64,000 nucleotides of DNA. Source: Massalongia carnosa (lineage: Eukaryota). Shown piece by piece: positions 5,524-43,540 of this stretch (position 1 is the stretch's first letter; each line of letters begins with the position of its first letter). A model generated the notes under the pieces. That model ran no database searches. It was given only the letters and a program-made list of their open reading frames with translations, and was not told the origin of the DNA. The translations under genes and the position numbers were made by a program. The stretch spans positions 868,001 through 932,000 of the forward strand of contig OZ287086.1 in assembly GCA_965645245.1 (NCBI GenBank). Reading direction: 5' to 3'.

Positions 5524-5814
5524 CGCCTTGTTTCGACGGACTGAATCTAGGACGAAACGGGAAAGCGTAGGATGAAAACTCCTTAAGTCGGATCGGCGAG
5601 GGCCGTACGATAAGAAGAGCCCATTCTTCGGGGCTAACTATAACTGGAAGCGGCTAGGGGCTAGCCGCAGCTAGACGGGCGGTAATGTAACGGTTCGACC
5701 AAGCGTGGTACGGACGGCAGGACCTACAGCGAATATAGCAGGAGTCTCAGTTATAGTAGAATAGAGCTTGGTCTGCGGACTAAGTATTGTGCCTTTAGTC
5801 GGGAAGGACAGGTG

Positions 5815-6573
5815 ATGATGATGATGATAATAATGATTCTTATTCCAATGTGGTACCGGCCGAAGGCCGGCCCATGCGGGCGAGTCTATCTAGTTTTATA
5901 GTATATGGAAAGCCTTTTGAGGAAGAAAAACCATGCAATCCTGTGTCCGGCCGAGGACCCTCCGGGTCCCAGCCGTGTACTCCATGAAAAAACCTTTGAC
6001 CTAAGACAAGTATGAAAAATGAAACAAAGCATGCCTACTATTAGCAGTATAGATGCTGTGCTGTCAGCGATAATTTGGAAAATAAACCTGTCTTCATTAG
6101 CTACTTTGTGACTAATTTCATTACTTCAGATGACTCAGTGATTAATCGATAGTTGTTTGTGCCTATCTTATTTAGCAGAGTTTTTCTGTTGTCGTTGAAT
6201 TTGCAAAACATGATCACATGTTTTACAGTCTTTTTATGCCAGCCACATGAGCAGTTCGGGGACGAGACGTCTGGGACTCGGTATCTATGTAGGAAGGCGG
6301 CTAGGCCTATCTTTTCTGAGCGTATCTGTATGGCTAGCGCGCTATCCGCTTTGGCTAGAGTTTCGTGCAATTTGATGCGTTTTTTAGAGAGTGAACCTGA
6401 TTGTGCCGGGGTGGGAACGGGTGTGCGTTCCTGATATGATCTCCACGAGGCCTGCCATGCAAATGTGTGTAGTTTTTCTATTTGAGCAGTTATTTTGTTA
6501 TGAGCGGCGCGTGCCTCCCCTATTTCTCGGGCGAGATTCGGGGGGGATTCGGCCCATGGTGGATTTGGTGTCA
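5815..6573 (-). mobile_element. 5'-truncated Tad1-like LINE (3' end)
   Basis: 14-bp TSD GGGAAGGACAGGTG (5801-5814 / 6574-6587), (ATC)n-type tail and C-terminal CSCG...HVIMFC motif. Near-identical to 35945-36704. Confidence 0.92.
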
Positions 6574-7475: not shown

Positions 7476-7763
7476 TTTTCTTCATTATATTTTTCTCAAA
7501 TGTCATCAATTTTACAAAAAATTCTTATCTTGTGAAAAAGACAGAATTTTTTCGATACGAATTAATTATATCAAAAGAATTCTCTTTAAGTACAACTGAA
7601 ATTCAATTATATGGAAGACTTAATCAGATATTACATTTGATTTTATTAGAGGGAATTACATTGACTTAAACTTTATTTAAGTCGGTTTTATTATCAGTAT
7701 TCTTATTAAAGAACTTCGAAATAACATAAATAAACAAAAAACTATAATGATAAAGACTAATGA

Positions 7764-9142
7764 TGACGATAATTATGATAAATTCTTATACCGATATGTC
7801 ACCGGCCGAAGGCTGGCTTATACGGGCGTGGTTCTATATGACTATTGTACATAGGAAAACGTTTTAAGGAATAAAACCCCAGTACCCAGTAATATCGCCT
7901 GCGGGATAACCATGATCCCTCAGTTTACCTAATAACGTGTCTCTGTGAGGTCTTTGAAAGAAAAAGGAGAAGAGCGAAAGAAAAGGGGAAGAAGTCAAAT
8001 ATTTCAAATGTTGTGTCGACGGGAACTATCCGTACAGCATAGTCGCTTCAAATGAAAACTGTTTTGGTATATCTGCCCGCATTAACCATGCTGTCAACTT
8101 TTTCAATTTTGCGGAATTTTCAATTATCGTGCGATATTTGACAGTTTTCACTTGATTAAATAATTCATTTCTTCCGTCTATCAGCTGACAGTGCATGATG
8201 ACGTGTTTGGCCGTCCGCCTTAGCTATCCACATATGCACGCCGGTAAGTTAGCATTGGGTACCCTTCGGTTGAAAAGAAAGTTGGCCAACCCGATTTTCT
8301 CCGTGCGTATTTGCGTTGCTAGTGAACTCTCCGCTTTTGCCAAATTGCTGTGAGTTTTTAATCTCAAGCGAAGCTTGTTGAGCCTCGGTGGGGAGTGGAA
8401 TGCGATTTTGATAAGTCGCCCATATTGACTTCCATATTTTCATATGAAGCTCCATGAGCCGCGTATGATGTGCCCGTTAGGCCGTTCGCGCTTTACTCAG
8501 CTCCTTGAGATATTCTGGACTGGCCTCGTACCATTGGGGCGCGGAAGGCGGTAATCTAACGGCGGCTTCTTTATTTAACATTGCCTTAGCCCATGTGTGT
8601 TTCAGTTCTCCGGTTCTTGGCGGCGGAGTTTTTCTTCGACCCGCTCTTTCCCGTAGCTTATTAGCTATTATCTTGCATGCGGAGTTAGCGAGCGCTTTTT
8701 GCCCCGTGATTCGTAGTCGATATCTGGCTTTAGCCTGCAGTTGATCCAAATACATATCTATTGGGGCTATGTGTGTTTCTGCCTCCAGCACCGGTATCGG
8801 GGTAGCCTTGAACGCTCCGATGACTGTGCGTAGGCATCTGTTCTGAATGACCCCCAATTTGGACGTTATAGATTTATTTCTATTTACGTCTTTCAGTGTG
8901 TGCCAGACGATTGAACCATATATCATGGCCGGCCGCACCACCGCCGTGTATACTTGCCTGGCCCTAGCGAACGAAGCTCCCCAGATAGACGTGGAAATTT
9001 TGTTAGGGCCATGCTCTGCTTGACTATCTTCTCCTGCGTTTTCCGTATGTGAGCAACCCAATTAAGTTTGGTATCTATTTGAAGACCGAGTATTCTTATA
9101 TCCGCTTTTGGTTTGATTAAGCTGTTTTCTATATTAATAGGC
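7764..9142 (-). pseudogene. LINE ORF2 C-terminal part and 3' UTR (3' portion of chimera A)
   Basis: IRILGLQIDTKLNW, ARQVYTAVVRPAMIYGS, GAFKATPIPVLEAE and a C-terminal Cys/His motif; frameshifted. Confidence 0.88.
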
Positions 9143-12100
9143 AAATCAAATACTTCTTCAAGACTCTATTCAGTTATTGAATATCTGTATATGATATAAA
9201 CCAATAAGAGATACGGAGGTCGCGATGAATATTCAACTCGAAAACACGTTCGTGATCGCGCACGCGGTGCAGAGAGATCAACTGCTGTATATGATAGATG
9301 ACTGTCTGATAGGCATAGGAGACGGAGAAGAACCGGAGGGAACAGGGATTCTAGAGGAGGTGGAAATTTTTCTCGATAATCAGAGAAGCATCGACAACGA
9401 CAACGAAAACATACCGAAGCCTATTCACGACACCATGACTGAAATACAAAGAAGTCTAGCCCGTATCGAAAGTGCTAAGACAGCCACAACAACCACAAAC
9501 AGCTATTCCGCAGCCGCCACCAGAGGTCAAGCCTCCGAGGCCCCCCCGATTCCCCGCCTCACCAAGCCAATCACTTCTTCAAAACAATCCGAACCCTAAT
9601 CACAAGAAGTTCGTCAGGCAAGAGCAATGACCGTAGTCATTTCCAGCGCAAGCGACAAGGAAAAAATAAAGAACATGCCCACAAAAGATCTCGTGTAGAC
9701 ACTACAAGCAGAAACGGAGGGGATTCGGGGAGTATCGCGACTCATCAGCGGAGATCTCAAAATTCACACTGAATCACTAGAAGTCAAAAAGACTCTACAA
9801 GAAAAGTCGGAATGGACCCGAAAAATAGCCGACTCAGCGGCGATTAAGACACGGACATACTCGGTCAGAGTAAATGGTGTCAAGATGGAACATATCAAAA
9901 CCGCCAACCAATCGCAGGCCATAGGGTACCTGCAGACCGCTAACGCACGCCTGCACCCGGACATGCAGATAAAGAAAATAGCCTGGTCCACCAGGGCTAT
10001 AAGGGAAAAGAAGGCGTTCTACACGCTACATATGGAAGTCGCCACCGCCGAAACGGCCAATCGGGTCATAGCCGAGGGTCTCATAATCGACTATGAAATC
10101 AAAGACTGTGAAAGATTTACAAAGGGATGCACCATGACGCAATATTTTAATTGTCACAAATATAGTTATATAGGTCGATCATATCCCAACCCCACCGCCT
10201 GCGGTCACTGTGCTGGGGCTCATCCTAGCACCAAATACAAAATGGAAACAACAGGTAGATATCGAAGATGTGAGGCATGCAGTGAAAAGGGGCACGAAGC
10301 CTGGTCAAAATCCTGCGAAATCAGGAAAGTCGAAAAACGCAAAGCAGAGAGGGCCATGCAAAAACGGGTCCCATTCTACCCAGTAATCGCCCCCGTACCG
10401 GCTCCGTTCAGGTTCCAGAGCGAAAACATTAACCCGGTCCTTGGCAGCACAAACAGCAAAAAGAGGAAAACCGCACTTCCCTCCGATATCCCCCCGTATC
10501 CCCCACGAACGGGAACGTCCTGGGCTGACACGGACATCATAAATCTAGAAAACATGACAAAGGCCCTTGCAAAACCAGTTGTAGATAGAGCCCCACTCAG
10601 ACCCCGAGCTGTATATACTGCCCCGGCGATAATCAGAGCAAACAACACCACCAACGACCCCTCGACCTCCCAGGCCGAATCAATAGACGTCCTATGAGGG
10701 ACACGAAATCTATCTCTATATTGCAGTACAATATCAGAAATAACAGAGTGAATACAATGTTACGCTTCTTAGCCGATCCGAACACTCAAGAATATGATAT
10801 TATCGCAATTCAGGAACCCTAGCGCAATCTATCTATTCCTACCACGTTAAGCTCTCATTAAAGTTGGTTTCATTTATTATATCGCGCAAATGGAGACACC
10901 AGAGTGTGTTTCTACATAAATGATACTATTGAACCTGATAGCTGGGAAGTAGAGTATCCGTCGGCCATCAGGTGTACCCTAATAATTCGAATGAAAGTTG
11001 GAAACACATCAGACGTGATCGACATCAACAATGTGTATAATCCCTCTCCTATTTCCTATTCTTCTATAGACAGTCCGTCCACGCTAGCAATAGTGAAACG
11101 CCAATTAATTGCAGAGACAAAACACTTTTTACTGGGCGACTTCAACCTATATCATCCATTGTAGAATCATTCGTCGAGGGCTAATCAACATGCGGAGTCG
11201 GAAAAATTACTGAACATAATTGAAGAGGCAAATCTATCACTAACACTTATAAAAGGCACCATTACATAGGTGGCTAGACAATCGTCTAGCACAATCGATC
11301 TTGTATTCATATCCGAAGAATTAACGGATAGACTAGAACATTGCATGTCAAGACCGGAAGTTAATCAGTCGTCCGATCACATTCCGATCTCTACCCGAAT
11401 TGCTTTGAATAGTAAGGTTCAAACAATCAGAGAACGCAGGGCCTGGAAACTGACGAATATGAGAAAACTGAGAGAAGCGGAAAAGAGTGCGCCCCCCCCG
11501 AAGACCCCCCGATCCCCCGCAGAATTCGATGCTTAAACAGTTTCAATTTAAAATTTCTTCAAGAAGTGATAGAAACCTCTATACCTTAGGCTAGACCCAG
11601 TAAGTACGCCAAACCCTTTTGGAATGATAAATGCAGTATGATCACGAAAGAAACTCGTAGGCTCAGACGTGTCTGGTCCAATTCAAGAGACATTTCTGAT
11701 TGGATAACATACACAAAATCTGTAAGGTTAGACTAAGCGTGATGCGGACGGCAGGACCTTCAGCGAACATAGCAGGAGTCCCAGTTATAGTAGAATAGAG
11801 CTTGGTCTGCGGAATAAGTATTGTGCGTTTTGGTCGGGAAGGACAGGTGGCGCAATGGTAGAATCTATTCACTATCTCGCTTCGTCACAAAATAAAAAAT
11901 CATTCAAAAGGCTAAAAGACTATCGTTCCGCAAGGAAATAGAAAAAGCCACCGAATCGCCAACTCGTCTCTGGCGACTAGCCAAATAGGCGAAATACAAA
12001 AGTGACCAGACAAGAGAAATTCCAAAATGCCCAATATCGTTCGAGACGACCAAATAGCAGAGACGTTCGAGGAGAAATCGGACATGCTAAAAGAGAAATT

Positions 12101-13288
12101 CTTTCCACCCGCCCCTCCGGCCGACCTCAGCGATATAGAGGGTTCATTTTACCCCAGCCCGCCACAATATCCAATGATCATAACCTAACTAGAGGTGATG
12201 GAAGCCATTCGCCGACTCAAGCCCGATACGGCCCCGGATCCGGACAGAATAGCCAACTGAATTGTAAAGGTATGCTCAGAAAAGCTAGTCGAATTACTCA
12301 CCCCACTGTTTCAAGCCTGTGTAGAACAAGCATATCATCCTCGTACATTCAAAATCGCCAACACAATTCCGCTCATGAAAACAGAAAAGGATAACTATTC
12401 GGCCCGAACGTCGATCGACCCATAGCACTCCTAAACACGCTTGGAAAAGTAGTAGAGTCCATCAAGTCACAAAAAATAACCCATCTAGCGGAAACCTACC
12501 GACTCCTGCCCGACAACCGGATGGGCGCCAGACGAGAAAGATCAACCGAATCTGCACTAGAATTGTTGACTGAAAGAATTTATACAGTTTGGGGCCAAGG
12601 CACAGACAAATTAGCTACATTATTGAGCATGGAAGTAGCAGGAGCTTATGACACAGTGACACATCGAAGACAGATTCACAATCTTCGCAAAAGGAAAATC
12701 CCAAAATGGATTACTGACTGGGTTAACAGTTTTTTGAATGAAAGAAGCACTACCCTGGCGGTTCACAGCCGAGTCACGGGCATATTCGATGTAAAAACCG
12801 GAATCCTACAAAGCTCTCCCATTTCTCCTAATCTTTATCTGTTCTACAATGCAGACCTACTCAACATATGTGAAAGACCAGGCAGCAACACGAGTACTCT
12901 AGGCTTCGTAGATGACATCAATGTGCTAGTATACGGAAAAAGCACCGAAGAAAATTGCAAGACGCTAGAGGTAATTCACAAAAAATATGCAAAATGGGCA
13001 AGTCGACATGGTTCAGTCTTCGCTCCGAAGAAATACGAATTGATACATCTGTCAAGAAATCCGAAGAAATTCAACATGTTCAATGTTATTCAAATAGGAA
13101 ATAATATCATAAAACCAAAGACAGACATCAGAATTCTAGGACTTCAAATCGATTCAAAATTGAAATGGGGTGCTCACACAGGGAAAATCCAGGAAAAAAT
13201 GGCAAAATAATCCAGGGCATTGACAAAAATATCCACCTCCACATGGGGCGCCACTCTTCTAAAGGCACGCCAGGTTTAAACCGCCGTA
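9143..13288 (+). mobile_element. Tad1-like LINE (ORF1 + ORF2), 3' end deleted
   Basis: ORF1 ~9225-10697 has three Cys/His knuckles (e.g. CGHCAGAH). ORF2 starts at an ATGA overlap at 10694 with APE motifs (LQYN, IAIQEP, LGDFN, TIDLVF, SDHIPI) and RT (GFVDD). Stops and frameshifts are present. Confidence 0.92.
11721..11889 (+). mobile_element. Solo LTR of the TRIM family inside LINE ORF2
   Basis: Matches 5288-5457; flanks AAATC/AAATA. Confidence 0.9.
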
Positions 13289-13470
13289 CTCAGTGTGTAT
13301 GCACCGCGTGGTAGAAGGACGGTCTCGTTGCGTTCAACATGGAACAAGGGAGTGGTTTTACCCTGGGGGCCAGGTTTCCACTTCCTGACTGTTGTTTATG
13401 TACATAAATAGCAGTCACAGCGTCATATCCTTAGGATGCATACGCTTAATGAATTAATAATAATAATAAA
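13289..13470 (+). other. Short unidentified sequence ending in a (TAA)n tail, possibly a SINE/LINE 3' end, at a deletion junction
   Basis: Unrelated to either neighbour; ends GAATTAATAATAATAATAAA. Confidence 0.4.
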
Positions 13471-13515
13471 TTGGTAGGTTGTGGCTCCAGGTAGTGTGGC
13501 TGTGCTGATTTGGCT

Positions 13516-21238: not shown

Positions 21239-21436
21239 GAAAGCGGTTGCATCCCGGAAAGCGGTTGCATCCCGGAAAGCGGTTGCATCCCGGAAAGCGG
21301 TTGCATCCCGGAAAGCGGTTGCATCCCGGAAAGCGGTTGCATCCCGGAAAGCGGTTGCATCCCGGAAAGCGGTTGCATCCCGGAAAGCGGTTGCATCCCG
21401 GAAAGCGGTTGCATCCCGGAAAGCGGTTGCATCCCC
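21239..21436. repeat. 18-bp perfect tandem repeat x11 within the left TIR
   Basis: GAAAGCGGTTGCATCCCG x11; only 2 copies in the right TIR. Confidence 0.97.
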
Positions 21437-21629
21437 CCAAATTCAAATTTCTTCATCTTTTTGATCATTGACCAACAACCACATTGATTAAAAATCAGCC
21501 GATACCGTACATAGCTTGAAAATCATCGCCGTCATCATCACCGTCGTCAAAATCATTTCCCTTGACTCCCCTGACCCCCTGACCCTCGTGATTCTCCGCT
21601 TACTCCGCATACCCCGCATACCCCGCATT

Positions 21630-23642: not shown

Positions 23643-24013
23643 GATACGAAAGGGGAGATTGGTTTGGGGGATTGATTCGAGAGGAAAGAATTTGAATTGA
23701 TGATCAGTTGGGTCGGAGAAATAATTTTCAAGCTATGTACGGTATCGGCTGATTTTTAATCAATGTGGTTGTTGGTCAATAATCAAAAAGGTGAAGAAAT
23801 TTGAATTTGGGGGGATGCAACCGCTTTCCGGGATGCAACCGCTTTCCCCGACTAAAATGCGGTCGACATTTTTTCAAGTCGGATCCCGGAGGTAAGCGAG
23901 CCGACGATTAAAGTCTAAAATCATCCTAGTCCAGGATGCGTGCCGCATACCGGAATAGGTCTACTATTACACGTGATCATAATAATGTCTAGCGCCATAG
24001 GTTGGTATCCAAC

Positions 24014-25180
24014 ACTAGTACATTGATGTCATCGACGAATCCGAGTCCACTCGTTTTCGTGCCGGGCCTGTTACATATGTCTAGTAAATCCGCATTGTAG
24101 AACAAATACAGAATGGGAGAGATGGGTGAACCTTGCGGAATTCCGGTTCTCGCATCAAACTCGTCGGTGGTTCGTCGGTTAATCGTAAGAGTCCTTCTGT
24201 TTTTCGAAAAGCATTCTATCCAGTTGGTGACCCACTGTGGAATTTTTCTTCTTCGAAGATTGTGGATCAGTCTTTGATGCGAAACCGTGTCGTACGCGCC
24301 GGCCACGTCCATGCTGAGCAGCGTGGCAACTTTATCATTACCTTGACCCCACACTGTGTGAATCTGTTCGGTTAACAGCTCTAGTGCTGACTCGGTGGAC
24401 CTTTCCCGTCTGTCTCCCATCTGGGTGCCTAGTAGTAACTCGTGCTTTTCGGCCATATGAGTGATCTTGCTTGCCATGATGGCTTCTATCACCTTGCCTA
24501 ACGTATTCAGCGGTGCTATCGGACGATAGGCCTTTTTCAGCGTTATCGTATGCGCTGTACTGAATGCTCGCGGGTGATATCCCAGATTTACGCACGCCTG
24601 AAATAGAGGAGTTAACAACTCGGTCAACGTCTCAGAGCACGCTTTGAAAACTCTGTTGGGTATGCCATCCGGTCCAGGAGCCGTGTCGGGTTTGAGGCGT
24701 AGAATCTTCGTGAGCACCTCTTTCTTCGTTATGACTGTTGGGCCCTCCGAGGCTGCCGGATAGACCGACCCGGGTATGTCCTGTAGATCCGCCGGAAGCG
24801 GAGCAGGAAAGAAGATGCCTTTTAGCATTTCAGCCTTCTCTTCGAAGGTGTTCGCGCTGTGATTGTTGAAAGTCAGTGTTGGCATTTTTGGTATTTCGCG
24901 CGACTTGTGACTCTTGTCCTTTGCCCATTTCGGCAGCCGCCATATGCCCTGAGATGATTCAGACGCTTTACTGATAGCGTTTCGGAATGACATTGTTTTT
25001 TGCTTTCTTGATTATCTTTTGCTTTTTATCATTCAATTTCATGTACGTTTTCCAGTAATTGAGATTTCGAGAGGCTGTCCGAATTTTTTGAATTCTGCTT
25101 GTTTCTCTCATGGCGTTGTTGCAGTCCTCGTTCCAGAATGGTTTTGCATAAGCACTAGGCATTGCCCATGGAACGGCCGC
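24014..25180 (-). pseudogene. LINE ORF2 RT region (part of chimera A)
   Basis: APGPDGIPN, YRPIAPLNTLGK, DVAGAYDTVSH, GIPQGSPISPILY and GFVDD motifs. Confidence 0.92.
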
Positions 25181-27079
25181 AGCTAAGAATGATAAAATAG
25201 AGTTGACGTCTCCTTTGTGAAGTCTCTATTCCAGTTTTCGTTCATCTTACTTGTGCGTATTACGGCCCAAAAATATTGATGAATTCTACGATTGGGGTAA
25301 ACGACGTCCCTTTCGCCCAGGTCAAACCCAGTTTACTCCTTAAGCATATATCAAGGGCGAGTCTAGCCGTAGCCCATGCGCCAGCGAACCGACGGTATCT
25401 AGTTACGAGCGAGATAGACATTCCCTGCTCTATATACACCGACTTGCGCATACTGTCCTCTAGGGCTATGCAGATGGTCTCCGAACGGTGGCAGCCATTG
25501 CACACCACGCCTCACGGGTTTTTTACACCCACTTCGCGTTATTCATAAAGGTCTCCCGTTTATGAACCGACCATGTCTCGCAGGGATTTCGACCACTATG
25601 CTCCTGACCAGGCAGTATAGTATCGATTTTCCGTCCCTACTAACCAAAACGAATCGAGGACAACTCGGAGGGGTGCTCGTTTGAAATTCGTCTATTAGCT
25701 CAGGGCCTAGACTGTTATCAATTAACGGGTTCCTCGTATATTGCCCTCTTCTTGTCCCAAGGGTGTCCTATTTGATGACTAGGTTGCCTCTACCATCCCC
25801 GGTACGACTCCGGTTCGGGCCGTATTGCTCACGGTAGCCATCAATCGGATGGTTTTCATAACCCAAATCCCTCGGTATCGTGTAGGGTATGACCCTACAC
25901 TATGTGTCTATATGTTTTATTTCTTTCAGCCGGAGGGCTCTGTGTTGTAGACGAAGGAGACCCGTTTTATAGAAATAGCTGACCCGTGTCGTACGTCTCT
26001 AGCTCTCAGCCAATGACTGCATGAAAGGACTTGAACCTTTAAGAGTATGACCGAACGTTGTTAACGAGGTCTATGAAAATCTTATTAACGAGGTCTTCGA
26101 GAACAATATTAACGAAGTTCCGCTGAACTCTTTTCATTCGTTTTGTGATCTATCGAGGTCTACCCGTGTCAAGTCCACACCATGCCCGTGTCAAAATGCA
26201 TTATTTTCAGCTGATGACTGCTAGAAAGGACTTGAACCTCTAAAAATATGTACTCCGATATTAACGGGGTGCAGATCTGTCTTAACGAGCCCCCGCAGAA
26301 CCCCCTTCACAGGGACGTGTTATTGATTTGTTACTGTGTTTTTTGTGACTGTATTTTTTGTGACTGTATGTTTTGTGGCTGTGTGTTTTGTGACTGTGTG
26401 TTTGTGACTGTATGTTTGTGACTTTGTGCTTTGTGACTGTGTGCTTGGTACAACGTGTGATTGATGACTATATTTTTTGTGACTCTGTGTTTTCCTCGAT
26501 TTTATTTAATAGGCCGGGCCTGTTAAATGGGATATTTTTATTCTGCTCCGAGATGGAGTTTTCTTGATGTGACAGCATTCGCCCCGGTGCCTTTACACGT
26601 TCTGTTGATCCAAGCTGATGACTACATGGGGAGACTTGAACTCTCAGGAGCTAGAATGCGTGTCGACTGTGCCCGGGTAGGGGATGATGCGGCTCCTTTG
26701 GTCCACATCTTCTTCCAGCTGATGACTGCATGAAGGGACTTGAACCCTTAGAAGCATGGTGCAGGGAGGCGCGCATTCTACCCCCCGGCGGTTGGTCTTC
26801 GTATCCTCTTCCGTACGTACGTCTGCGACGCGTGTGAACGCGTTAAATTTGAATTATTTTGATGCGAAAAGGTAGGAGCAAATCTATATGTTTGACGGTC
26901 GCCCCACGGTGAGGCCATTGGCGTCTCCGTGGTGAGGGCCGATAGTGTAGAAGGAGGAGGACCGATGGTGTAGAAGGAGGACCGATGTTGTAGAAGGAGG
27001 AGGACCGATGGTGTAGAAGGAGGAGGACCGATGGTGTAGAAGGAGGAGGACCGATGGTGTAGAAGGAGGAGGTCCGATC
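25181..27079 (-). repeat. Non-coding passenger sequence, copy A (inverted relative to 33541-35480)
   Basis: Colinear reverse complement of 33541-35480, with mostly transition differences in the stretches compared. Includes a 23-bp array (26937-27079) and a TGTGACTGT-type array (26335-26480). Confidence 0.92.
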
Positions 27080-27260
27080 GATAAAGACTAATGAAATCAT
27101 ACACGAAATAATTGTATTGTGATATTTTAATCTAATCAACACAAAACTTTCTGTCAAAATATGAGCAATCTTGAAGACTAAATTTTAAAACGTAACATCA
27201 ATAAATATCATTAATGTCATCTTGAAAATCAATATAAATAGAATGAAAGATTGTGAAATC

Positions 27261-28282
27261 TGTGACGAAGCGAGAAAGTGAATAGATTTCTACTATTGCG
27301 CCACCTGTCCTTCCCGACCAAAAGGCACAATACTTAGTCCGCAGACCAAGCTCTATTCTACTATAACTGGGACTCCTGCTATGTTCGCTGTAGATCCTGC
27401 CGTCCGCACCACGCATGGTCGAACCGTTACACTACCGCCCGTCTAGTTGTGGCTAGCCCCTAGCCGCTTCCAGTTATAGTTAGCCCCGAAGAATGGGCTC
27501 TTCTTAGCGTACGGCCCTCGCCGATCCGACTTAGAGAGTTTTCATCCAACGCTTTCCCGTTTCGTCCTAGCTTCAGTCCGTCAAGCAAGGCGAAAAAGCT
27601 AGGAACTCAGGTCAGGAATCGAACTTACGACTAGTACACCGATTGATGACTAAGTATTCTGTGACGAAGCGAGAAAGTGAATAGATTTCTACCATTGCGC
27701 CACCTATCCTCCCGACCAAAAGGCACAATACTTAGTCCGCAGGCCAAGCTCTATTCTACTATAACTGGGACTCCTGCTATGTTCGCTGTAGGTCCTGCCG
27801 TCCGCACCACGCTTGGTCGAACCGTGTCAAGGACTGGGCAGGGGATTGAACTAATGTTCCTTGGAATTGGATTGGGTGATCAAGATGTCTTTATTAATAA
27901 GGCTATAGCTAGGTGATGGATTGCTATACAAGACGTCGGACAAGGAGTCAACAATCTAATTAACTTGTCCTTCCTTTTATATTTGTCTCGAACCCCTTTG
28001 CATGAAGATTCGATCAGTGTTCATCTCCCCCTATTAGGAGACGTACGGCACGAAGGTTTGACGAGGTGTTTGACGATAAAAGGTGGAGATGAGGATCTCC
28101 TGTCGTTGGTACGCTTTGATGGTGATGGTACAGCTTTGACCTGAAGCCGTTGAGAGGGGTCTAAACTCGATTAAGTTAATGAGATTCTGACTAAGCTGAA
28201 TAGAGGAACGGGAGCTTAGTCAGATTCATCTGCGGGATTGATTCTGGATCGGGTTAGTTCGATTTCATGACAAACCGTTACA
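27261..28282 (-). mobile_element. TRIM copy 2; 5' LTR split by a solo LTR
   Basis: LTRs at 27261-27431 and 27660-27824 plus 28278-28282; internal domain 27432-27659 matches 5458-5685; perfect TSD AAATC. Confidence 0.93.
27825..28272. mobile_element. Solo LTR (448 bp)
   Basis: TGTCA...TGACA ends, TSD AACCG, near-identical to 57350-57796. Confidence 0.93.
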
Positions 28283-29132: not shown

Positions 29133-31860
29133 GGGTACGGATAGAAGCACACCCCTTTGGTTAGCCACACACCCCCCTCGGTTAGCCACACACCCCCCTC
29201 GGTTAGCCACATACCCCCCTCGGTTACCCACACACCCTACCCTATAGTAGCTTAAGTTTGAAAAGTTTCTTCGGCCACCTTTCCTTATTGGCTGACCACC
29301 TTTCCTAACTAGGTTAAGCCGTTAAACTTTTCCCCACAACCTAATATTTTACTTAATCACCTGGCACGTGCCTAGCTGTACACCCCTTGCCAGCTCTGAC
29401 CCAACTTTTTCAAACGGAATCGATTGAGACCATCTTCGTCAATCAGACCACGATTTGATTAGACCAGTCTTTATGCAGCCTAGCTACTCCGCCTGTGGCC
29501 TGTATCCCGTGCCAGCTGATTCTGATTATCCCCCCGTGCCAGCTAATTCTGATTATCCCCCCGTGCCAGCTAATTCTGATTGTCCCCCTATGCCAGCTAA
29601 TTCTGATTGTCCCCCCATGCCAGCTGATTTCGGTTGTTTCTTTCTTCCACCTTGTCCCGCCTCTTTTCCTACACCTCGGGGTCGACCTCGTGGCCTTCCT
29701 CGTTTTCCGGGTGCTGGATCGGCTCTTTGTATAACACGTTCCACCTCTGGATCGACTATCTCGTTTATCCCAGCTGTCTCCATCTCGACACGTTCGAATT
29801 GAGAAGGTACTCGATTGGTAGAGGCCTCAAATGCTATGGTCCTTCTGTTGAGATTATCAGCTCCTTGAGGACGTCCTCGAGTTCTTGCCATCTCCGGTTC
29901 TTGCACCAATAGTAAGTCATTCCTCGTATTGGCAGGCATGGTTCTCTGAAACCTACAATAGTTAGTAATCGCAGGGAAACTCTGAATGTATCCAATAACC
30001 TACCTCCAATGTGGATGAACGTCTTCAATCAACAGACTTCCTTCCTCATACAACTTATCCTGGATTTTATGACTACATGGAAGTCCAGTTGTGATGGTGT
30101 AAGCATGGGTGCAAGGCCCCAATACTATTGGTCGTCCGACCACAAGATTGTACTGAAGAAGCATCTTTCGTAGGGCATGAGGGGTGACGAATCCGGTTAA
30201 TCGCTGAAACACTGGTTTTCGAAGATCCATGGGAAGTGGGTCTCTGGCTTCGTTGAATGTAATAAGATAGTTGTGAAGTTCATTGACCAATAGTAAGTTG
30301 ATGCCATCCACCACCGTCTTCAGATCTCCGGTCGATGATCCCAGCTGACGTTTCAAAACTGCATGACCGCCTTCACCTCGAGATGTCGTCGTGGTATCAA
30401 AATGCAACATCTTGTCAGTGTAGCATTTGACGAAATGATGCCGAAAAGACAAATAAGTTGAGGTGATATACTCCACGCAATTTCCAGGAATCGTACCACA
30501 AAATCGCCCCCATAGTTGCCAGAATTCCGGTTCGGTAGTGGCGTATACGATGGATTTCCATTCAGCAAAGAAGGCATCCCATGCTTCTTTGGTATCAAAG
30601 CTTTTCTTACAACTGGCTACGATGTTGTTGTTGATGTACCAAATGCAAAGAAGATGATTAGTGTTCGGAAAAGTCTGATCAATAGCGGACATCAAAGCAC
30701 GTTCCATATCAGTGACGATAACGACTGGATCAGGAAGTTCGAGTTGCAAATACAATGCCTTCAGATGAGACAATACCCACGTGTAATCGGCGATGGTTTC
30801 TGATGCCATGAAACAGAAAGCCACATAGAAATTTGTATGCAGACTGGTCTGACCACTTACAATAAGAAGAGGCATGCGATATCGATTTGTCTTGTAGCTG
30901 CAGTCCATTACCAACACCTCATAGTTTGTCTTCAGAAGAGTTTGGGAGCTTTCTCTGACGAAGAAGAGATGAGTGATACGATTCAGCTCATCTTTCTGCA
31001 TGTGGTATGTCCAATGCCCTCGTTCCAACTCTCGAATCAATGCCTGCACGGGGGTAATAGGTCCCAGAATGTCGCGACGCATCTGAGCTTTGTGATTATA
31101 GATATCTCGAGGTTTGAAAAGAGGATTAATAATCTGAGGATCGGCCGGATCGTCCGTGTTGACTGATCCCAAAGTGGGATCAGGAATGCGAAGACTAGAT
31201 AAAACTTTGGAAGGTGCTACTTGCACTGTTAATTGACGAGATATCTCATTTTTCACTTCTGCTGTCATAGCCATTCTTCTATGAACCGGATGGGCGCCAG
31301 CGAGACTGGACGAATGATTATGTTCCTCATTTACCACCTCCAGAATCCAGGCACCTCCATCTTCTTCCATTCGCTTAGCAGTCAGAAGAAACGGATATTC
31401 TATGCATCTACTGCTGGTATGACGTCTTTCCTGTCCCTGAGGACCTCGGTGCTTTCCTCCTCGATCACAAATCAATCAGGCCTTTCTTCTTATTCCGAGT
31501 TTCGATTTCTTGGTCCGGCTTAACACGATGGCATATCCTTGTGGGGCGGCATGCTCATTAACACGAATAACAAGGTCATCCAGTGATTCGAAGGATTGTC
31601 CATCTTCTGGAGGACGAAGACTCATGATGACGACGTGGCGTCAGTAATGCGGGGTATCAATGCAGGGAAAACGCAGAATGAAGATGCAGGATCAAAATTC
31701 CCTAGTTAGGAAAGATGGTCACCCGATAAGGGAAAGTGGCCGAAGAAACTTTTCAAACTTAAGCTACTTTAGGGTTGGGTATGTGGGTAACCACCGGGGG
31801 TGTGTGGGTAACCGAGGGGGGTGTATGGGTAACCAAAGGGGTGTGCTTCTATCCGTAACC
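29133..31860 (-). mobile_element. Mutator-like (MULE, Hop-like) DNA transposon
   Basis: TIRs of ~160-180 bp starting GG(G/T)TACGGATAGAAGCACACCCC with internal 21-bp subrepeats; TSD TAGTTATA (29125-29132 / 31861-31868). Confidence 0.93.
29450..31628 (-). pseudogene. MULE transposase (FAR1-like N-terminus, DDE core, SWIM-like motif, RGRP AT-hooks); disrupted or intron-containing
   Basis: VMDCSYKTNRYRMPL, VTDMERAL, HLLCIWYIN, TTSRGEGGH and GLPCSH in ORF 30000-31475; RGRP repeats in ORF 29553-29939. Confidence 0.88.
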
Positions 31861-32185: not shown

Positions 32186-33185
32186 CACGGGCGTTCAAGG
32201 CAACACCCGTCGAAGTTCTCGAAGCGGAAACGTTCATCGCCCCCATGGAGTTGCATCTGGACAATCTACAGATAAAATCAAGGTATCGTCTACGGCCCGC
32301 AGGGCAGGCGAAACTGATTTCCAAAACCTGCAACACAATAGCGAATAAGCTACAGGGTAAGGCAGGACGCAAAAGAACGCAACACCTCACCCCAGGAGAG
32401 TTGAAATAAATGGGCCATCAAAATGTTAAATAACGAGGCACCAGTCACAATGCCACCATCGCCCCCGCCCTGGTCCACACCCGACCCGGCGCACCTCGAA
32501 AAATGCACCACGACAAGCCATACCATAGAGAAACACACAAAGGCCACCACAGAACGCATCAAGGAACACTGGGACTCCAAATGGAAGACGTACCAGAACC
32601 GCATTCCCCGCCCGACAGAGGCAAAGTTGGGATCTCTCAGTAGGACAAGACTGAAGATGCACAACGACCTGATGAAAGCGGAAAGCGCGCAAACAACGTA
32701 AATTCGCACCGAAAAAATAGGCTTGGCAAACTTCCTGTTCAATCGTCGGGTACCGGGCGTTATGACCCCGGCCTGCTCGTGCGGATAGCAGAAGCAGATA
32801 GCCAAATACATTATTCTTACTTGCAGGCTAATCTACAGCAGATACGAAGTACTAAAACAAATAGGCACCAACGATTATCGAACGATCATTAGCTCGTCGA
32901 AAATGTTGAAAAAACTAACCACATGGATAATAAAAGCAAATTTGCTGACCCAATTTTCACTAGCATCGCAACTGTTATACGAGTGATAACTCTCATTTTG
33001 TCAAGGATTTCACAGAACATCGAGCGAAGAATGCAGTCCAGAAACGGAACACTTTTGGGATAATGGCGAAGTCTACATGGTTTTTATCTCTATAAAAGAT
33101 TTTCCCTGTAAGAATAAGTAGATAGCCCGCATGGGCCAGCCTTCGGCCGGTGTCAGATCGGTACAAGAATCAATCATCATCATCC
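32186..33185 (+). mobile_element. 5'-truncated Tad1-like LINE (third subfamily)
   Basis: AFKATPVEVLEAE and IRTEKIGLANFL motifs, 3' hairpins and (ATC)n tail; approximate TSD ACTATCGA(G/A)AAA at 32174 and 33186. Confidence 0.87.
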
Positions 33186-33295
33186 ACTATCGAAAAAACG
33201 TTGAGATCACTAAACGATTTATTCTCGTAATTGTTAATCTTAGATAACGAATTTTTTATTTTACTGTATTTAGTAAATGTTATCACTCTAATATT

Positions 33296-36200
33296 CAATA
33301 CCTATTCGACTTTCGACATGAAATAACAGACGCTGCTTCTCCGCCGAAAGTCTTACGAAGCGAAGTTACATCTGACTCGTCGTGGATTTATCAACATGAT
33401 CGATTTACAGCTTGATCACCCGCTAATACGCCTCAGATTCTTGCCCATTATCTTTAAACATTCATACTCCTTATTCGCTTCGGATCTTATACATCACAGT
33501 CATATACATTGTCATTTATTAAATAGCTATATAGTCAGACACTATCGGTCCTCCTCCTTCTACACCATCGGTCCTCCTCCTTCTACACCATCGGTCCTCC
33601 TCCTGCTACACCATCGGTCCTCCTCTTTCTACACCATCGGTCCTCCTCGATCTACACCATCGGTCCTCCTCGTTCTACACCATCGGTCCTCCTCGTTCTA
33701 CACTATCAGCCCTCCTCCTTCTACACCATCGGTCCTCCTCTTTCTACACCATCGGTCCTCAATACGGAAACGCCAAAAGCCTCACCGTGGGGCGACCGTC
33801 AAACATATAGATTTGCTCCTATCTCTTCGCATCAAAATAATGCTAATTTAACGCGTTCACACGCGTCGCAGACGTACGTACGGAAGAGGATACGAAGGCC
33901 AACCGCCGGGGGGTAGAATGCGCGCGTCCCTGCACTATGCTTCTAAGGGTTCAAGTCCCTTCATGCAGTCATCAACTGGAAGAAGATGTGGACCAAAGGA
34001 GCCCTATCATCCCCTACCCGGGCACAGTCGACACGCGTTCTAGCTCCTGAGAGTTCAAGTCTCCCCATGCAGTCATCAGCTTGGATCAACAGAACGCGTA
34101 AAGGCACCGGGGCGAATGCTGTCACCTCAAGAAAACTCCATCTCGGAGCAGAATAACAATATCCCATTAATAGGCCCGGGCTGTTTAATAAAATCGAGGA
34201 AAACACAGAGTTATAAAACACATAGTCATCAATCACACGGTGTACAAAGCATACAGTCATAAAGCAAACAGTCACAAATATACAGTCGCAAACACACAGT
34301 CATAAAACACATAGTCACAAAAAACACAGTCACAAATCAATAACACGTCCCTGTGAAGGGGGTTCTACGGGGGCTCGTTAAGACAGATCTGCACCCCTTT
34401 AATATCGGAGTATATATTTTTAGAGGTTCAAGTCCTTTCTAGCAGTCATCAGTGGAAAATAATTTATTTTGACACGGGCATGGTATGGATTTGACACGGG
34501 TAGACCTCGATGGATCAGAGAACGAATGAAAAGAGTTCAGCGGAACTTCGTCAATATTGTTCTCGAAGACCTCGTTAATAAGATTTTCATAGACCTCGTT
34601 AACAACGCTCGGTTATACTCTTAAAGGTTCAAGTCCTTTCAAGCAGTCATCGGCTGAGAGCTAGAGACGTACGACACGGGTCAGCTATGTCTATCACACG
34701 GGTTTCCTTCGTCTACAACACGGAGCCCTCCGGTTGAAAGAAATAAAACATATAAACAAATAGTGTAGGGTCATACCCTACACGATACAAGGGATTTAGG
34801 TCATGAAAACTATCCGATTGATGGCTACCGTGAGCAACACGGCCCGAACCGGAGTCGTACTGGGGATGGTGAAGGCAACCTAGTCATTAAATAAGACACT
34901 CTTGGGACAAGAAGAGGGCAATATACGAGAAACCCGTTAATTGATAACAGTCTAGGCCCTGAGCTAATAGACGAATTTCAAACGAGCACCCCTCCGAGTT
35001 GTCCTCGACTCGTTTTGGTTAGTAGGGACGGAAAATCGATACTCTACTGCCTGGTCAGGAGCATAGTAGTCGAAATCCCTGCGAGAAATGGTCGGTTCAT
35101 AAACGGGAGACCTTTATGAATAACGCGAAGTGGGCGTAAAAAACCCATAAGGCGTGGTATGCAATGGCGGCCACCTTACGGAGACCGTCTGCATAGCCCG
35201 AGAGGACAGTATGCGCAAGTCGGTGTATATAGAGCAGGGAATATCTATCTCGCTCGTAACGAGACACCGTCGGTTTGCTGGCGCATGGGCTAAGGCTAGA
35301 CTCGCCCTTGATATATGCTTAAGGAGTAATCTGGGTTTGACCTGGGCGAAAGGGTCGTCGTTCACCCCAATCGTAGAATTTATCAATAGTCTTGGGCCGT
35401 AAAATGCACCAGTGAGATGAACGAAAACTGGGATAGAGACTTCACGAAGGAGATGTCAACTCTATTTTATCATTCTTAGCCAGGGCATTGACAAAAATAT
35501 CCACCTCCACATGGGGCGGCACTCTTCTAAAGGCACGCCAGGTTTACACCGCCGTAGTCCGGCCGCCCATGACGTACGGCTCCACCATTTGGCACATGCC
35601 AAAAGAAATTCAAAAATCAAACGTTATCTCAAATAAACTGGCTGTCATACAAAACAAATGTCCAAGAAACATAGCCGGAGCTTTTAAAGTAACGCCCATA
35701 GCTGTACTTGAAGCAGAGACATTTATAGCCTCAATTGACATAAATTTAGATCAACTACAGGCCCAGACCAGACAACGCCTGTGTCGAAATAGTCAAAAGT
35801 GTTTCATCACAAATGCATGCAACAAAATAGCCAATAAACTTCGAGGTCGGGCAGGACGCAAGAGGGCCCCAGTCATCACTCCAGGAACGCTGAAATACCC
35901 CTGGGCCAAGAGAATTACATCGGATGCATATAACCCTCCAACACCGACACCAAATCTACCATGGGCCGAATACCCCCCGAATCTCGCCCGAGAAATAGGG
36001 GAGGCACGCGCCGCTCATAATAAAATAACTGCTCAAATAAAAAAACTACACACATTTGCATAGCAGGCCTCGTGGAGATCATATCAGGAACACACACCCG
36101 TTCCCACCCCGGCACAATCAGGTTCACTCTCCAAAAAACGCATCAAATTGCACGAAACTCTAGCCAAAGCGGAGAGCGCGCTAGCAATTCAGATACGCTT

Positions 36201-36704
36201 AGAAAAGATAGGCCTAGCCACCTTCCTACATAGACACCGAGTCCCAGACGTCTCGTCCCCGAACTGCTCATGTGGCTGGCACAAACAGACTGCAAAACAT
36301 GTGATCATGTTTTGCAAACTCAACGACAACAGAAAAACTCTGCTAAATACGATAGGCACAAACAACTATCGATTAATTACTGAGTCATCTAAAGCAATGA
36401 AATTAGTCATAAAGTGGCTAATGAAGACAGGTTTGTTGTAACAATTTTCGCTGACAGCACAGCATCTATACTGCTAATAGTAGGCATGTTTTGTTTTATT
36501 TTTCATACTTGTCTTAGGTCAAAGGTTTTTTCATGGAGCATACGGCTGGGACCCGGAGGGTCCTCGGCCGGATATAGGATTGCATGGTTTTTCTTCCTCA
36601 AAAGGTTTTCGATGTACTATAAAACTAGATAGACTCGCCCGCATGGGCCGGCCTTCGGCTGGTACCACATCGGAATAAGAATCATTATCATAATCATTAT
36701 TATC
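33296..36704 (+). mobile_element. Chimeric retroelement B: non-coding passenger (33296-35480) fused to a 5'-truncated Tad1-like LINE (35481-36704)
   Basis: 14-bp TSD ATCACTCTAATATT at 33282-33295 and 36705-36718. The LINE part starts ALTKISTSTWGG (matches 13212-13288) and ends in hairpins plus an (ATC)n-type tail. Confidence 0.87.
33541..33760. repeat. 23-bp minisatellite (~9.5 copies) near the passenger 5' end
   Basis: CTACACCATCGGTCCTCCTCCTT units; ~6 copies in copy A at 26937-27079. Confidence 0.93.
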
Positions 36705-37019
36705 ATCACTCTAATATTATTCAATCGTTATGACATTTACTATGAAAATTTAAACTGAATTCTATTTCTTTAATTTAGTAAAATATTCATAAAAATGTTT
36801 CAAAATTCAAAATAAACTTCATAATAAAGATTTGAATAGTTCGAAAATGATTTTACGTTTTATATAAGTAGACAATTAAACTTTCTATAATTTAATATTG
36901 TTGTTTATCATTTATTAAACAGAGTAAAGTTAATAATATAACATGTACGTATTGATCATCTGAAAATAAATTACTTGTCCTACTTACTTATAACGATTCG
37001 ATTTATTTTACTCGAACAA

Positions 37020-40000
37020 TGTCAGCAAGGATTGACATTGTATCAGGTCACGCACGTCCTGACATAAGCTAATTGGTTGTTATAACCGATCTCCGATGTA
37101 ATGGGCTACGAGACCAGTAAGCTTATCACGAGTAAGCTTATCACGAGCGACACTGATCTCGAAAGGGGAAATACTCAGCGTGAGAGGTGGAAGATAGCTA
37201 CTACGTGCTGGTCTCGGAGAGTATACGTGATCCAAAGAACTAATGGATGTGGAAGTGCTTAGACCAAGAGATCTCGTCCGAGACCCATACGTAGGTTGTT
37301 CATAGAATAAAACTAATTGCTAACGAATACTACAGGATTCGTTCTGGTATTTATCCTACTCACCCTAAGCCTATAGCCTTGGGAGCCTTGGAACCTTAGG
37401 AGCCTTGCAACCCACTTCTGACCTTATCGTCTTACATCTAACCATCCCTCAGGATCCATCTACGAACTCGGCGTTCGCTGGATCATCTAGTCAGCCTCGA
37501 GCAGCCTTCTAGATCTTCCTTGCAAAGTAGAATACTTCTACCTCCTGCTAGATCCCTCACTACATTGCTAGCCCGCCTCTAAATATAAAGTCTAGACGCC
37601 AAGGCTATGTAGCTTCATTTCGCCGTCACCACTACTAACGTAGCGATGGAAGGTTACCTCTGACTGAATCTCTGTCTACACTGCGGACCTGTCTCTAGAC
37701 ACAAGGCCTAGACCACAAGGTCATGTAGGTATCAAGCTGTATGGGCTAATGTGGAATATGGGTGAAAAGGAGTGGTGTGTATTGATCTATGGGAGGTCTA
37801 GGCTAGCTAACTGAGGGATATCTCATAGGGGTTCGTGGGTCATGTGACCCATGGCGGGTCATGTGACCCCTAATCGCCTGACACACCCCCCCAGCTTTGA
37901 CCAAAGCTGCCATGACCGAAAAACCTATATTAGGTGAAAATTTCCATGTTTTACCTTGATTTCTAGTGATTTTGGCCGATTCAATTTGTGGCCGTATTTC
38001 CCTTCTTCTGATTGGCCAATTTCTTCTGATTGTTGACCAGGTCCATGGCATTGACTAGCCCTAATAGCTTGACGAAATGTTGATGCTTTTGAAGAGGTAG
38101 GATCTTGGTTAAACCATCTGCGACCATCTGATTGGTCGGCACATAGTCAACACATAATTCCCCCCTTTGCACAGATTGCCTAAGCCAGCATTAGGCGACG
38201 TCTATATACTTCAATTTAGTGTCAGTTTTTCCCATTTCGGAGGTTAAAATGCGAATTGTCTGTAGGTTATCGTTATAGATAACTATATCTTGATCCGGGT
38301 TAAATTGTAGCTTTTCAAATAGATGTATCCACCATATGAGCTCTTTACCCGCATGAAGCATAGACAGTAACTCGGCCTCAGTGGTTGACGTGGTCACGGT
38401 CAGTTGCTTCCTAGCGGCCCAGTTAATCATCCCACCAAATAGCTTGAATGAATAGCCCTCGGAGCTTTTTCTATCTGGGTTATTTGCATAGGATGCATCA
38501 GCCGTTGCCTCAAAAACCTGCTTATTAGCCGGAACTGGTCCATGATTTGCCATAGTAGTGATTTCACCGCCCCCTTTGGCCGAGTACTGAATTCCCAGAT
38601 ATTTCGTCCCATAAAGATAACGTAGGCAATGGTCTGCAGCCCTCATATGACTAGGTCCCGGGTTGGTCAGATATTCAGCTAATTTTGAAGCTGATTTTGC
38701 TATATCTGGCCGAGTCATAATAGCTGGGTAGCATATTGATCCAACTTTCTTCCTATATAGATGCATTCTGGCCGGATCCACCTCCCCCTCATATGGCGCC
38801 AGTCCTTCATTGAATATGGGCGTTAGAGCTGTTTTAGCCTCCGACTTTTCATCTATGTCATACTCCTTGGCTAATTTCTTCATATATGAGTCCTGAATCA
38901 AGTGGATCGTCTTTTCTTCTATGTTATGAATGACCCGTACGCCTAGAAAATAGGTTAATGGACCCATATCCCGTATTTCGATCATCTTCATGAAACGTTG
39001 CACATATTCCTCGACTTCGGCTTCTTTTTCGGGCCGATACGCCATTACTATATCGTCCACATAGAAGAATAGTATGATTCCCTCCGTATAGAATAGGCAT
39101 GGTTCGCCTGGCACCTGTTTTAAACCTAGTTCTATGCATTTGCCTATTAGCATTCGTAGCCATAGAAGGGGTGATTTTCTTTGACCATATAGCGCTTTTT
39201 TCACATTTAGCAACTTCTTTCTAAGCTTAAAACCATCAGGCAAAAAGCAGTAAATAGGCTCGTCATTGTGAGCGTTTAGAAAGGCGTTAATAGCGTCCAA
39301 CTGCCTCGTTTTCAGCCAGAATGCAGCAACTAATGCCATTAATGCCCTAAACACCTTGAAGGCTAATGTAGCTGCATAAACATCTTGAGCATTATCTTGC
39401 TGTAGGTCACCTCTAAGCACTAGACGTGCTTTAAACTTTGCAAAATAGCCGTCCGAATCAGTCTTATAGGTGAAAACCCATTTGAGGGGCAATATTGGCT
39501 GTATAGCCTCATCTTGATCAACTATTTCCCATGTTTCTTTGTGGAAAAGTGCCTCCCATTCAACGTTAGCTGCTTTCCTGAACTCATCTGCATAGGGATG
39601 CCTTAGCAGAGCTCGCAAATGAGATGGGGGGTCGGGCAAATCATCAGTTCGGAGCTGATTTGTCAATCTCGCCGTCCCCGCCATAAACGCTATATGAAAT
39701 TGAGGGAATTTCGACATTTCTTCTGCTGACCAAGCTCCATTTGCAGCGTATCTAGGGTTTGGTTTCCTAGTACGTTTTCCCTCTATAACGTTTGCCTCAT
39801 TTATCCTATCGCTCCTTTTTCCTGATGCTTGCTCTATTTCCGTCACATTGAGGGGCGTTCGGCCCGTTTGCGGGAGTTGTGGAGGGTCAATTGTTGATGC
39901 CCTCACCTTTTTGGCCCTTCTTTATCTATTGAGACATTGGGGCTGATATCTGGTTCAGGTGTTTCTATTGGCGTTTCCAGTTGTATGGGCGTTGATGAGG

Positions 40001-43000: not shown

Positions 43001-43540
43001 TGGCGGGTCATGTGACCCCTAATCGCCTGACAGTAGGTTTATTCAGCCGACATCACTACCAGCGTAGCAATAAAGGTGGAAGCTGAAGTTTACACCGGGG
43101 AGGCCGAGCTCAAGCTGCGTCAAGCTAGCCGTGCCTCCTGCTACAACTCTTGATCAATCAAGAAATCGAGTAGCTCCGAGTAAGCCAGTAGATTCCATAT
43201 AGAGTTCACGGCTTCTCCACAGGAGTTCGCCTTACTCCATGGCAATCTACCACCACGGCCTCGACAGGTGTTTGATCTGTAAGTAGTATAGAACGTAGTA
43301 ACAACTAATTCGGAGTTGTGTGGCAAGGTGGCGTCGTGTCAACCTCGACGGCTATGCGACTAAGTACTACGGCCTGGCTCATGCTAGTTAATCCCGCAAC
43401 CGCCGTAGGCGATCACGTATCCTTCTAGCGCCATCCGTATTACATCCGATCTCAGACTTGGATACGGCTCGTATTCGTATTCTTCATTTAATTGTACCAA
43501 TCATAATCATTGTAATTAAATCAACGGACTCGTGACCCGA
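37020..43540. mobile_element. Possible long solo LTR or LTR-element relic (37020-37729 plus 43038-~43540) hosting a copia
   Basis: Starts TGTCAG at a sharp AT-to-GC transition, is non-coding and TpA-rich. Right end and TSD were not found. Confidence 0.35.
37730..43032 (-). mobile_element. Full-length Ty1/copia retrotransposon with disrupted gag-pol
   Basis: 154-bp LTRs at 37730-37883 and 42879-43032 (1 mismatch seen), TSD GTAGG, PBS GTTATGAGCCC and PPT GGGGGGGTG. Motifs IFDSGC, WHLRLGH, EQNGVSER, FYVDD, ADASYA and TSTTEAEL. Confidence 0.96.

Follow-up and report, generated by a model that had tools for sequence, protein, structure and literature searches.

This analysis concerns a 64,000-nucleotide (64-kb) stretch of Massalongia carnosa DNA (contig OZ287086.1 of assembly GCA_965645245.1, positions 868,001 to 932,000 of the forward strand), hereafter the window, and a non-coding sequence of about 2 kb within it, hereafter the passenger. 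The passenger occurs twice, ends both times at the same base and runs directly into a same-sense, 5′-truncated long interspersed nuclear element (LINE), and each composite (chimeras A and B) is bracketed by a single target-site duplication (TSD). The four-part pattern of a constant upstream 3′ end, variable LINE truncation, direct same-sense fusion and one TSD points to chimeras that arose as RNA or cDNA and entered the genome by target-primed reverse transcription. It is probable that passenger and LINE were fused in this way, by template jumping or RNA ligation, on repeated occasions, and that some of the resulting units were amplified afterwards. An RNA-level chimera had been proposed in a first-pass annotation made from the sequence alone, and the proposal gains support here: both window copies fit it, and three more junctions were recovered from public read sets.

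The two passenger copies are located as follows.

Passenger copy B: 33296..35480, plus strand, 2185 nt, non-coding (BLASTN)
Passenger copy A: 25182..27079, minus strand, 1898 nt, its start falling within a 23-bp tandem array (BLASTN and Tandem Repeats Finder, TRF)

In a BLASTN search of the window, 33297-35480 matched 27078-25182 on the minus strand with 91.9% identity over 1900 nt, in agreement with the earlier claim that the same non-coding sequence is present twice, and no third copy was found. A repeat search of the window also recovered the pair, as inverted pairs I2, I4, I5 and I6. The differences between the copies comprise 75 transitions and 45 transversions. The 5′-terminal segment 33296-33540 of copy B, about 245 nt, has no counterpart in A. 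The first-pass annotation had started the shared sequence at 33541 in B and had placed the end of copy A at 25181, which is corrected to 25182.

Both copies terminate at ...TCATTCTTAGC. The 16-mer at the shared end, TTTTATCATTCTTAGC, when searched with up to two mismatches, has matches in the window at 35465-35480 (plus strand) and 25182-25197 (minus strand) only, with 0.09 expected, which bears out the common 3′ breakpoint. Beyond it the copies are unrelated. Copy B goes on CAGGGCATTGAC and copy A goes on TGCGGCCGTTCC; the longer read-outs are CAGGGCATTGACAAAA... for B on the plus strand and TGCGGCCGTTCCATGG... for A on the minus strand. Both continuations are sequence of the second LINE open reading frame (ORF2) in the same sense as the passenger, and a shared non-LINE continuation was seen in neither window copy. 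The fusion is direct at both junctions, with neither filler nor poly(A).

The LINE sequences that bear on these junctions are listed below.

Chimera B LINE, 5′-truncated: 35481..36704, plus strand, ORF2 residues ~790-1118 and the 3′ untranslated region (UTR) with an ATCATT-type tail
Chimera A LINE, first piece: 24013..25181, minus strand, ORF2 residues ~292-694, with the RVT_1 domain
Chimera A LINE, last piece: 7764..9138, minus strand, ORF2 residues 747-1118 and the 3′ UTR
Longer LINE copy of the family of B: 9143..13291, plus strand, with intact sequence across the entry point of B
Plain 5′-truncated LINE of the family of B: 5814..6573, minus strand, without passenger, directly flanked by its own 13-14-bp TSD (C)ACCTGTCCTTCCC (repeat pair I1)

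Positions in ORF2 were assigned by tblastn with P0002, a 1120-aa full-length relative with endonuclease and reverse transcriptase (RT) domains, as the ruler. The LINE of chimera A enters ORF2 at residue ~292, between endonuclease and RT, and covers residues ~292-694 (25189-24013) followed by 747-1118 (9138-8032). The LINE of chimera B enters at ~790, past RT, and covers residues 790-1118 (35485-36471). Identity to P0004 is 87-91% for both A pieces, which therefore belong together, and 54% for the B LINE, so that the two partners represent different families. Earlier statements that the entry points differ, before RT in A and after RT in B, and that the partners are divergent (~54% amino-acid identity) are thus both upheld. 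Identity of the B LINE is 94% with 5814-6572 of the plain copy and 96% with 13213-13291; the latter overlap of 79 nt is the basis of its reported match to the LINE at 9143-13288.

RVT_1 was detected in the LINE reading frames of the window. Full-length relatives carry PF03372, PF14529 and PF00078, an endonuclease/exonuclease/phosphatase domain followed by RT, as in APE-type fungal LINEs; the first-pass annotation had labelled the partners Tad1-like. The terminal ~110 nt of the 3′ UTR are common to both LINE families, including a GCC-GCC-TTCG-GC-GGT hairpin and the ATCATT-type tail, and their 3′ UTR ends at 7764-7880 and 36590-36704 are near-identical despite the ~54% protein identity of the families. 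This GC-rich hairpin with its TTCG loop is a candidate RT recognition element.

The duplications that flank the chimeras are given next.

5′ TSD of chimera B: 33282..33295, plus strand, ATCACTCTAATATT, an exact 14-mer
3′ TSD of chimera B: 36705..36718, plus strand, ATCACTCTAATATT
5′ TSD of chimera A: 27080..27094, minus strand, TCATTAGTCTTTATC, 15 bp
3′ TSD of chimera A: 7749..7763, minus strand, TCATTAGTCTTTATC

One TSD surrounds the whole chimera in both window copies (14 bp around B, 33296-36704; 15 bp around A, 7764-27079), as the first-pass annotation had described, and a TSD around the passenger alone was not seen in either. The sequence ATCACTCTAATATT has two matches in the window, both at the borders of chimera B, where 0.04 are expected. 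For the 13-nt core of TCATTAGTCTTTATC, with at most one mismatch allowed, there are three matches (0.11 expected): two exact ones at the element borders and a mismatched one at 60201. The plain LINE at 5814-6573 provides a control for ordinary insertion, with its TSD directly at the truncated 5′ end. The span of chimera A is large owing to elements nested in its LINE, about 15 kb in total, namely the LINE at 9143-13291, a copia-type element and a pogo-type transposon at 21400-23847; at this nest, about 46-52 residues of ORF2 are lacking. The transposon, of pogo/Tc5 type and on the minus strand, is bounded by 127-bp terminal inverted repeats (98%) and contains an unbroken DDE_1 reading frame of 700 aa, and a tandem array of ~18-bp units (GGATGCAACCGCTTTCCG) adjoins one of its ends. 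Relatives of its transposase indicate an ascomycete host. Its insertion into the LINE of chimera A may be recent.

The arrangement of the TSDs bears on an explanation that treats the passenger as an independent element or locus in which a preferred LINE target lies just past TTAGC, with truncated LINEs inserted there in the ordinary way. Such targeting also predicts a constant upstream breakpoint and variable LINE truncation. Nevertheless, each LINE 3′ end is followed by a 14- or 15-bp duplicate of the upstream flank of the passenger and not by the remainder of the passenger, and passenger sequence downstream of TTAGC is absent in both window copies. For these two copies the explanation is refuted, and next to no weight is given to it overall.

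Contigs of four public read sets with differently labelled organisms (X1, X4, X6 and X7) were mapped on 32800-37200, X1 being probably derived from the organism of the window. The passenger is partly present in seven public sequencing runs. In X1, the unique flanks are represented by two contigs without any difference, with depths of 770 and 639, and the summed depth over 33829-35445 is flat and high at about 250,000-456,000. The resulting passenger/flank ratio amounts to roughly 350-650 copy-equivalents, a summed depth not being the same as a copy number. Depth in X1 is lower by a factor of about ten upstream of the 23-bp array and drops again upstream of 33388; the start of most copies thus lies at or within the array, and few reach the length of B. 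Dispersal of the passenger is confirmed by spurious antisense reading frames within it, which fall in five protein clusters on Mb-sized public contigs; none of the five reads across the passenger–LINE junction. A metagenome scan with the 21-nt passenger end returned one locus (L001), an unrelated AT-rich chance match with just 22 nt in common. Among the differences of the X1 family from copy B, 52 are T>C and 29 are A>G, compared with 16 C>T and 15 G>A; the bias is towards C or G in the family where B has T or A. This spectrum suggests C-to-T decay of copy B by deamination or a process like repeat-induced point mutation.

Three of the read sets contain junctions. A contig of X4 joins 35479 to 35868, which is a third entry point, in the same LINE as that of B. 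In X6, a 3.2-kb contig departs at 35481 into a 30-nt consensus that translates by eye to LLNCLGKIAE, which resembles, again by eye, the ORF2 RT motif RPIALLNTMGK of P0002. An 8.2-kb contig of X7 departs at 35481 as well. All five junctions (two in the window and three in read sets) therefore lie at passenger base 35479-35481, and recognisable LINE sequence follows in four of the five, with X7 as the exception.

A constant upstream end combined with variable downstream entry is also predicted if the passenger is a LINE 5′ UTR or first exon whose terminal donor is joined by cis- or trans-splicing to cryptic acceptors in the LINE, as in spliced integrated L1 copies (SpIRE-like). However, neither of the two checkable junctions has AG before the entry point. 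The intact LINE at the entry point of B (13200-13215) reads ...AAATAATC/CAGGGC, where the slash marks the junction; the last bases before it are AATC, without AG, and the X4 junction, GGGC/CCCAG, also lacks AG. The dinucleotide before entry is thus TC or AT in B and GC in X4. Moreover, the LINE starting at 9143, the sole window copy that reaches its own 5′ end, carries no passenger sequence, and the 92%-identical passenger is found on LINE families that are only ~54% identical. Splicing is accordingly a very improbable source of the junctions.

Repeated features within the passenger are as follows.

23-bp tandem array in passenger B: 33539..33760, plus strand, 9.7 units (TRF)
23-bp tandem array in passenger A: 26934-27078, minus strand, 6.4 units (TRF)
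Four-copy motif region in passenger B: 33943..34662, plus strand, a ~36-nt motif with a T-arm/B-box-like hairpin
15-bp ACAGTCAC-type array: 34200-34336, plus strand, inside passenger B (TRF)

The longest reading frame of the passenger has 174 residues and runs through the tandem array, and none of the 10 passenger reading frames tested gave a Pfam match (E up to 0.1). In Rfam, the whole window gave no match at the gathering score; with the limit relaxed to E = 10, the region 33200-36800 gave four weak matches, none of them relevant. No tRNA or tmRNA genes were detected by ARAGORN, and by ARAGORN and Rfam together no tRNA-, 7SL- or 5S-derived head was found on the passenger. The core of the ~36-nt motif, GTTCAAGTCyyyyCwwGCAGTCAT, occurs in B at 33949, 34053, 34426 and 34627. 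Its GGTTCAAGTCC portion, together with complementary flanking bases, resembles a tRNA T-arm or B box. The motif has eight matches in the window, four in each passenger copy and none elsewhere, with 0 expected. Folding of the four motif regions gave z scores of +1.14, +0.52, +0.24 and −1.72, leaving a strongly structured or tRNA-like RNA unsupported. Elsewhere in the window, a degenerate tandem array of about 1 kb at 51186-52236 also has a 23-bp period; its sequence is unrelated to the passenger array (no BLAST match).

When the passenger was aligned with the 3′ UTRs of both LINE families, the best local score was 22 with either. Shuffled sequences averaged 20.7-21.1, and a score of 22 was reached by 58 of 200 of them in one comparison and by 81 of 200 in the other. 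The passenger is therefore without a LINE-like tail, as had been suggested from the sequence.

Other identities for the passenger were considered and rejected. It is not a short interspersed nuclear element (SINE) with its own LINE-like 3′ tail: its end is unlike the LINE UTRs, with a score equal to that of shuffles, and it has no tRNA, 7SL or 5S head. Telomerase RNA, a long fungal non-coding RNA with a processed 3′ end, was rejected because neither copy contains a CCCTAA-type template, whether as an 8-mer or as a 9-mer with at most one mismatch, a test that covers the canonical TTAGGG repeat only. A tripartite chimera had been considered for the additional 245 nt of B; it was discarded, as a loose end of X4 at 33537 resembles, by eye, a duplicated upstream motif of the passenger.

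Taken together, the passenger is probably the DNA copy of a non-coding RNA of ~1.9-2.2 kb or more, with its 3′ end fixed at ...UCAUUCUUAGC. We infer this RNA intermediate and its defined 3′ end, as well as a promoter and the chemistry of joining, from the structure of the chimeras. During retrotransposition, the 3′ end of the passenger RNA would be attached to the 5′ side of a LINE that has been copied in part. By one route, the LINE RT would leave its template and jump to the 3′ end of the passenger RNA; by another, passenger RNA and LINE RNA would be ligated ahead of reverse transcription. These two routes cannot be told apart from DNA. The chimera would then be integrated through target-primed reverse transcription from the LINE 3′ tail, giving one TSD around both parts. 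Capture would have been repeated at different LINE positions and in at least two LINE families, and some chimeras would subsequently multiply as units, with the captured LINE tail used in trans.

Several observations weigh against this scheme. The passenger is known here from DNA, and the junction evidence comes from the 64-kb window and four read sets rather than from the genome as a whole and includes no LINE-free source locus. The exact terminus is ambiguous (TTAG, TTAGC or TTAGCC), and any junction microhomology, of 0-3 nt, takes its value from the precise end of the RNA. Folding showed no unusual stability in the last 691 nt (z = −1.25 sense, −0.67 antisense) and no structured-RNA signal in 33780-34200 (z = −0.92). 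The X7 continuation could be non-LINE sequence, and among the X1 loose ends listed, apart from 255 others, none lies at 35480. In the report on MINE, a chimeric element of Magnaporthe (PMC2104539), template switching is associated with GCC followed by A or U; this motif is absent at the junction of B, the sole junction fully checked. Finally, the X4 junction contig has a depth of 128.2, against a mean of 133.4 for the bin at the passenger end, which speaks for amplification of a unit rather than fresh capture in that read set.

The X4 depths also favor an explanation in which there is no stand-alone passenger gene. The passenger would be the 5′ module of LINE-tailed non-autonomous units that have a passenger promoter and are copied in trans, and the variety of junctions would reflect rare tail swaps. 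The single junction of X4 (35479 to 35868) is what such units would give, the flat and high coverage of 33829-35445 in X1 is as expected for a family copied whole, and a solo copy of WEIRD, the non-coding part of MINE, was likewise not found in Magnaporthe (PMC2104539). However, every tail swap would need the passenger 3′ end to be exposed at the identical base, where five of five junctions lie, and two LINE families with at least four entry points are involved. Even with unit copying, a passenger-only RNA or precise cleavage of the chimeric RNA is therefore needed, and the difference from repeated RNA-level capture is mainly one of frequency and not of mechanism. We regard exclusive unit copying as rather unlikely. 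With one junction so dominant in X4, it appears that a chimera, after its formation, may be propagated whole by way of its LINE tail, at least in that read set, and the family is therefore read as the product of recurrent capture with secondary amplification.

As a more specific form of recurrent capture, the passenger might be a dedicated 5′ hitch-hiker: a self-transcribed non-coding RNA without a LINE-like tail that multiplies only by joining its processed 3′ end to LINE RNA or cDNA, with hundreds of copies, at least two LINE families and several related fungi involved. The RNA end might then carry a ligatable terminus generated by a cleavage signal in the source gene. This is a tentative suggestion, possible but short of probable, and the unusually strong copy signal makes it worth testing. 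If it is true, capture by template jump or ligation would be a regular parasitic life style and not an occasional accident.

Several further elements were noted in the window. An element of ~527 nt with ~129-nt direct terminal repeats is present at 5288-5814 (repeats at 5288-5416 and 5686-5814) and at 27312-27825 (27312-27427 and 27710-27825). A solo 129-nt copy of this repeat lies at 11720-11848, inside a LINE, and one copy of the element is the insertion site of the plain LINE at 5814-6573. The element looks like a terminal-repeat retrotransposon in miniature or a solo long terminal repeat (LTR). A MULE-type DNA transposon at 29173-31841 has 141-bp inverted ends (88%) and a 491-aa reading frame with MULE transposase and RNaseH-like domains. 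The direct repeats 37730-37883 and 42879-43032 (154 nt, 99%, 5149 bp apart) surround copia-type reading frames and are probably LTRs. Another direct repeat pair, 27825-28272 and 57350-57796, is about 450 nt long and 98% identical, with its members 29.5 kb apart. Tandem arrays are present at 595-1044 (7 units of 50 bp, up to 98%) and, within a copia gag region, at 20462-20820 (3 units of 115 bp, 98-99%).

U6-L1, MINE and other chimeric retrocopies are generally regarded as by-products of LINE reverse transcription. In copy signal the passenger is on a par with its LINE partners or above them; it is associated with two LINE families and appears in the read sets of four organisms. These features suggest that a non-autonomous family can be successful by being captured at a defined RNA 3′ end. 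With one fixed breakpoint and many junctions, the family would be a good natural data set on how fungal LINE RTs change template and how RNA ends are marked for capture. Automatic repeat classifiers would mis-annotate the 2-kb passenger as "unknown" or as a LINE 5′ region.

No description of the passenger element was found in the literature searched, Repbase and Dfam lying outside that search. The Blumeria LINE Satine was considered as an analogue with 5′ satellite repeats and rejected, Satine being described as an ordinary two-ORF LINE. The LINEs of the RTE type in Nicotiana are alike in having a LINE body and 3′ end with exchangeable, unrelated 5′ regions; there, however, autonomous full-length LINEs gain new 5′ UTRs (bioRxiv 10.1101/2022.11.04.512097), whereas the LINE part of the passenger chimeras is truncated inside or after RT and the chimeras are therefore non-autonomous. 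SINEs and other non-autonomous retrotransposons with LINE-derived 3′ tails, such as Mg-SINE/MGL (PMC2104539), use a LINE 3′ end to recruit LINE proteins, and the dominant junction of X4 behaves like a family of this sort. The SINE tail is a short fixed mimic, whereas the chimera tail is a long stretch of LINE coding sequence plus UTR and varies from ~0.8 to over 2.5 kb.

The mammalian U6/L1 chimeras likewise combine a full-length small RNA that has a defined, non-polyadenylated 3′ end with a variably 5′-truncated LINE and a TSD, and have been attributed to template switching or to RNA ligation of the RtcB type (PMC6789731, PMC4476161, PMC11838501). U6 is a housekeeping RNA of ~100 nt with a 2′,3′-cyclic phosphate end, whereas the passenger corresponds to a putative RNA of ~2 kb, and its abundance relative to the LINE is far greater.

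The closest parallel is MINE of Magnaporthe grisea/oryzae, in which WEIRD, a 1.1-kb non-coding RNA, is fused to MGL LINEs. MGL is truncated at 28 different sites in 33 elements, which are flanked by repeats of 10-20 bp (PMC2104539, where accessions EF585235-EF585237 are named for MINE). In both systems a 5′ part that is non-coding and not derived from a LINE always stops at the same 3′ base and passes without interruption into a 5′-truncated fungal LINE of the same orientation; the entry points are many, a TSD encloses the whole, and the junction carries no poly(A) (PMC2104539). The likeness is one of architecture. Compared with WEIRD as described there, the passenger, at ~1.9-2.2 kb, is about twice as long and, unlike it, internally repetitive, with the 23-bp array, the 15-bp array and the four-fold 36-nt motif; its copy signal is in the hundreds compared with 31 MINE copies; and it rides two LINE families, unlike MINE, with a single junction dominating in X4. 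The analogy with MINE drawn in the first-pass annotation was apt. Every structural criterion that could be compared is common to both. Given this close parallel to WEIRD–MGL, the passenger chimera belongs to an already known class, and by analogy the passenger–LINE chimeras are best filed as a MINE-like member of the LINE-mediated chimeric retroelements.

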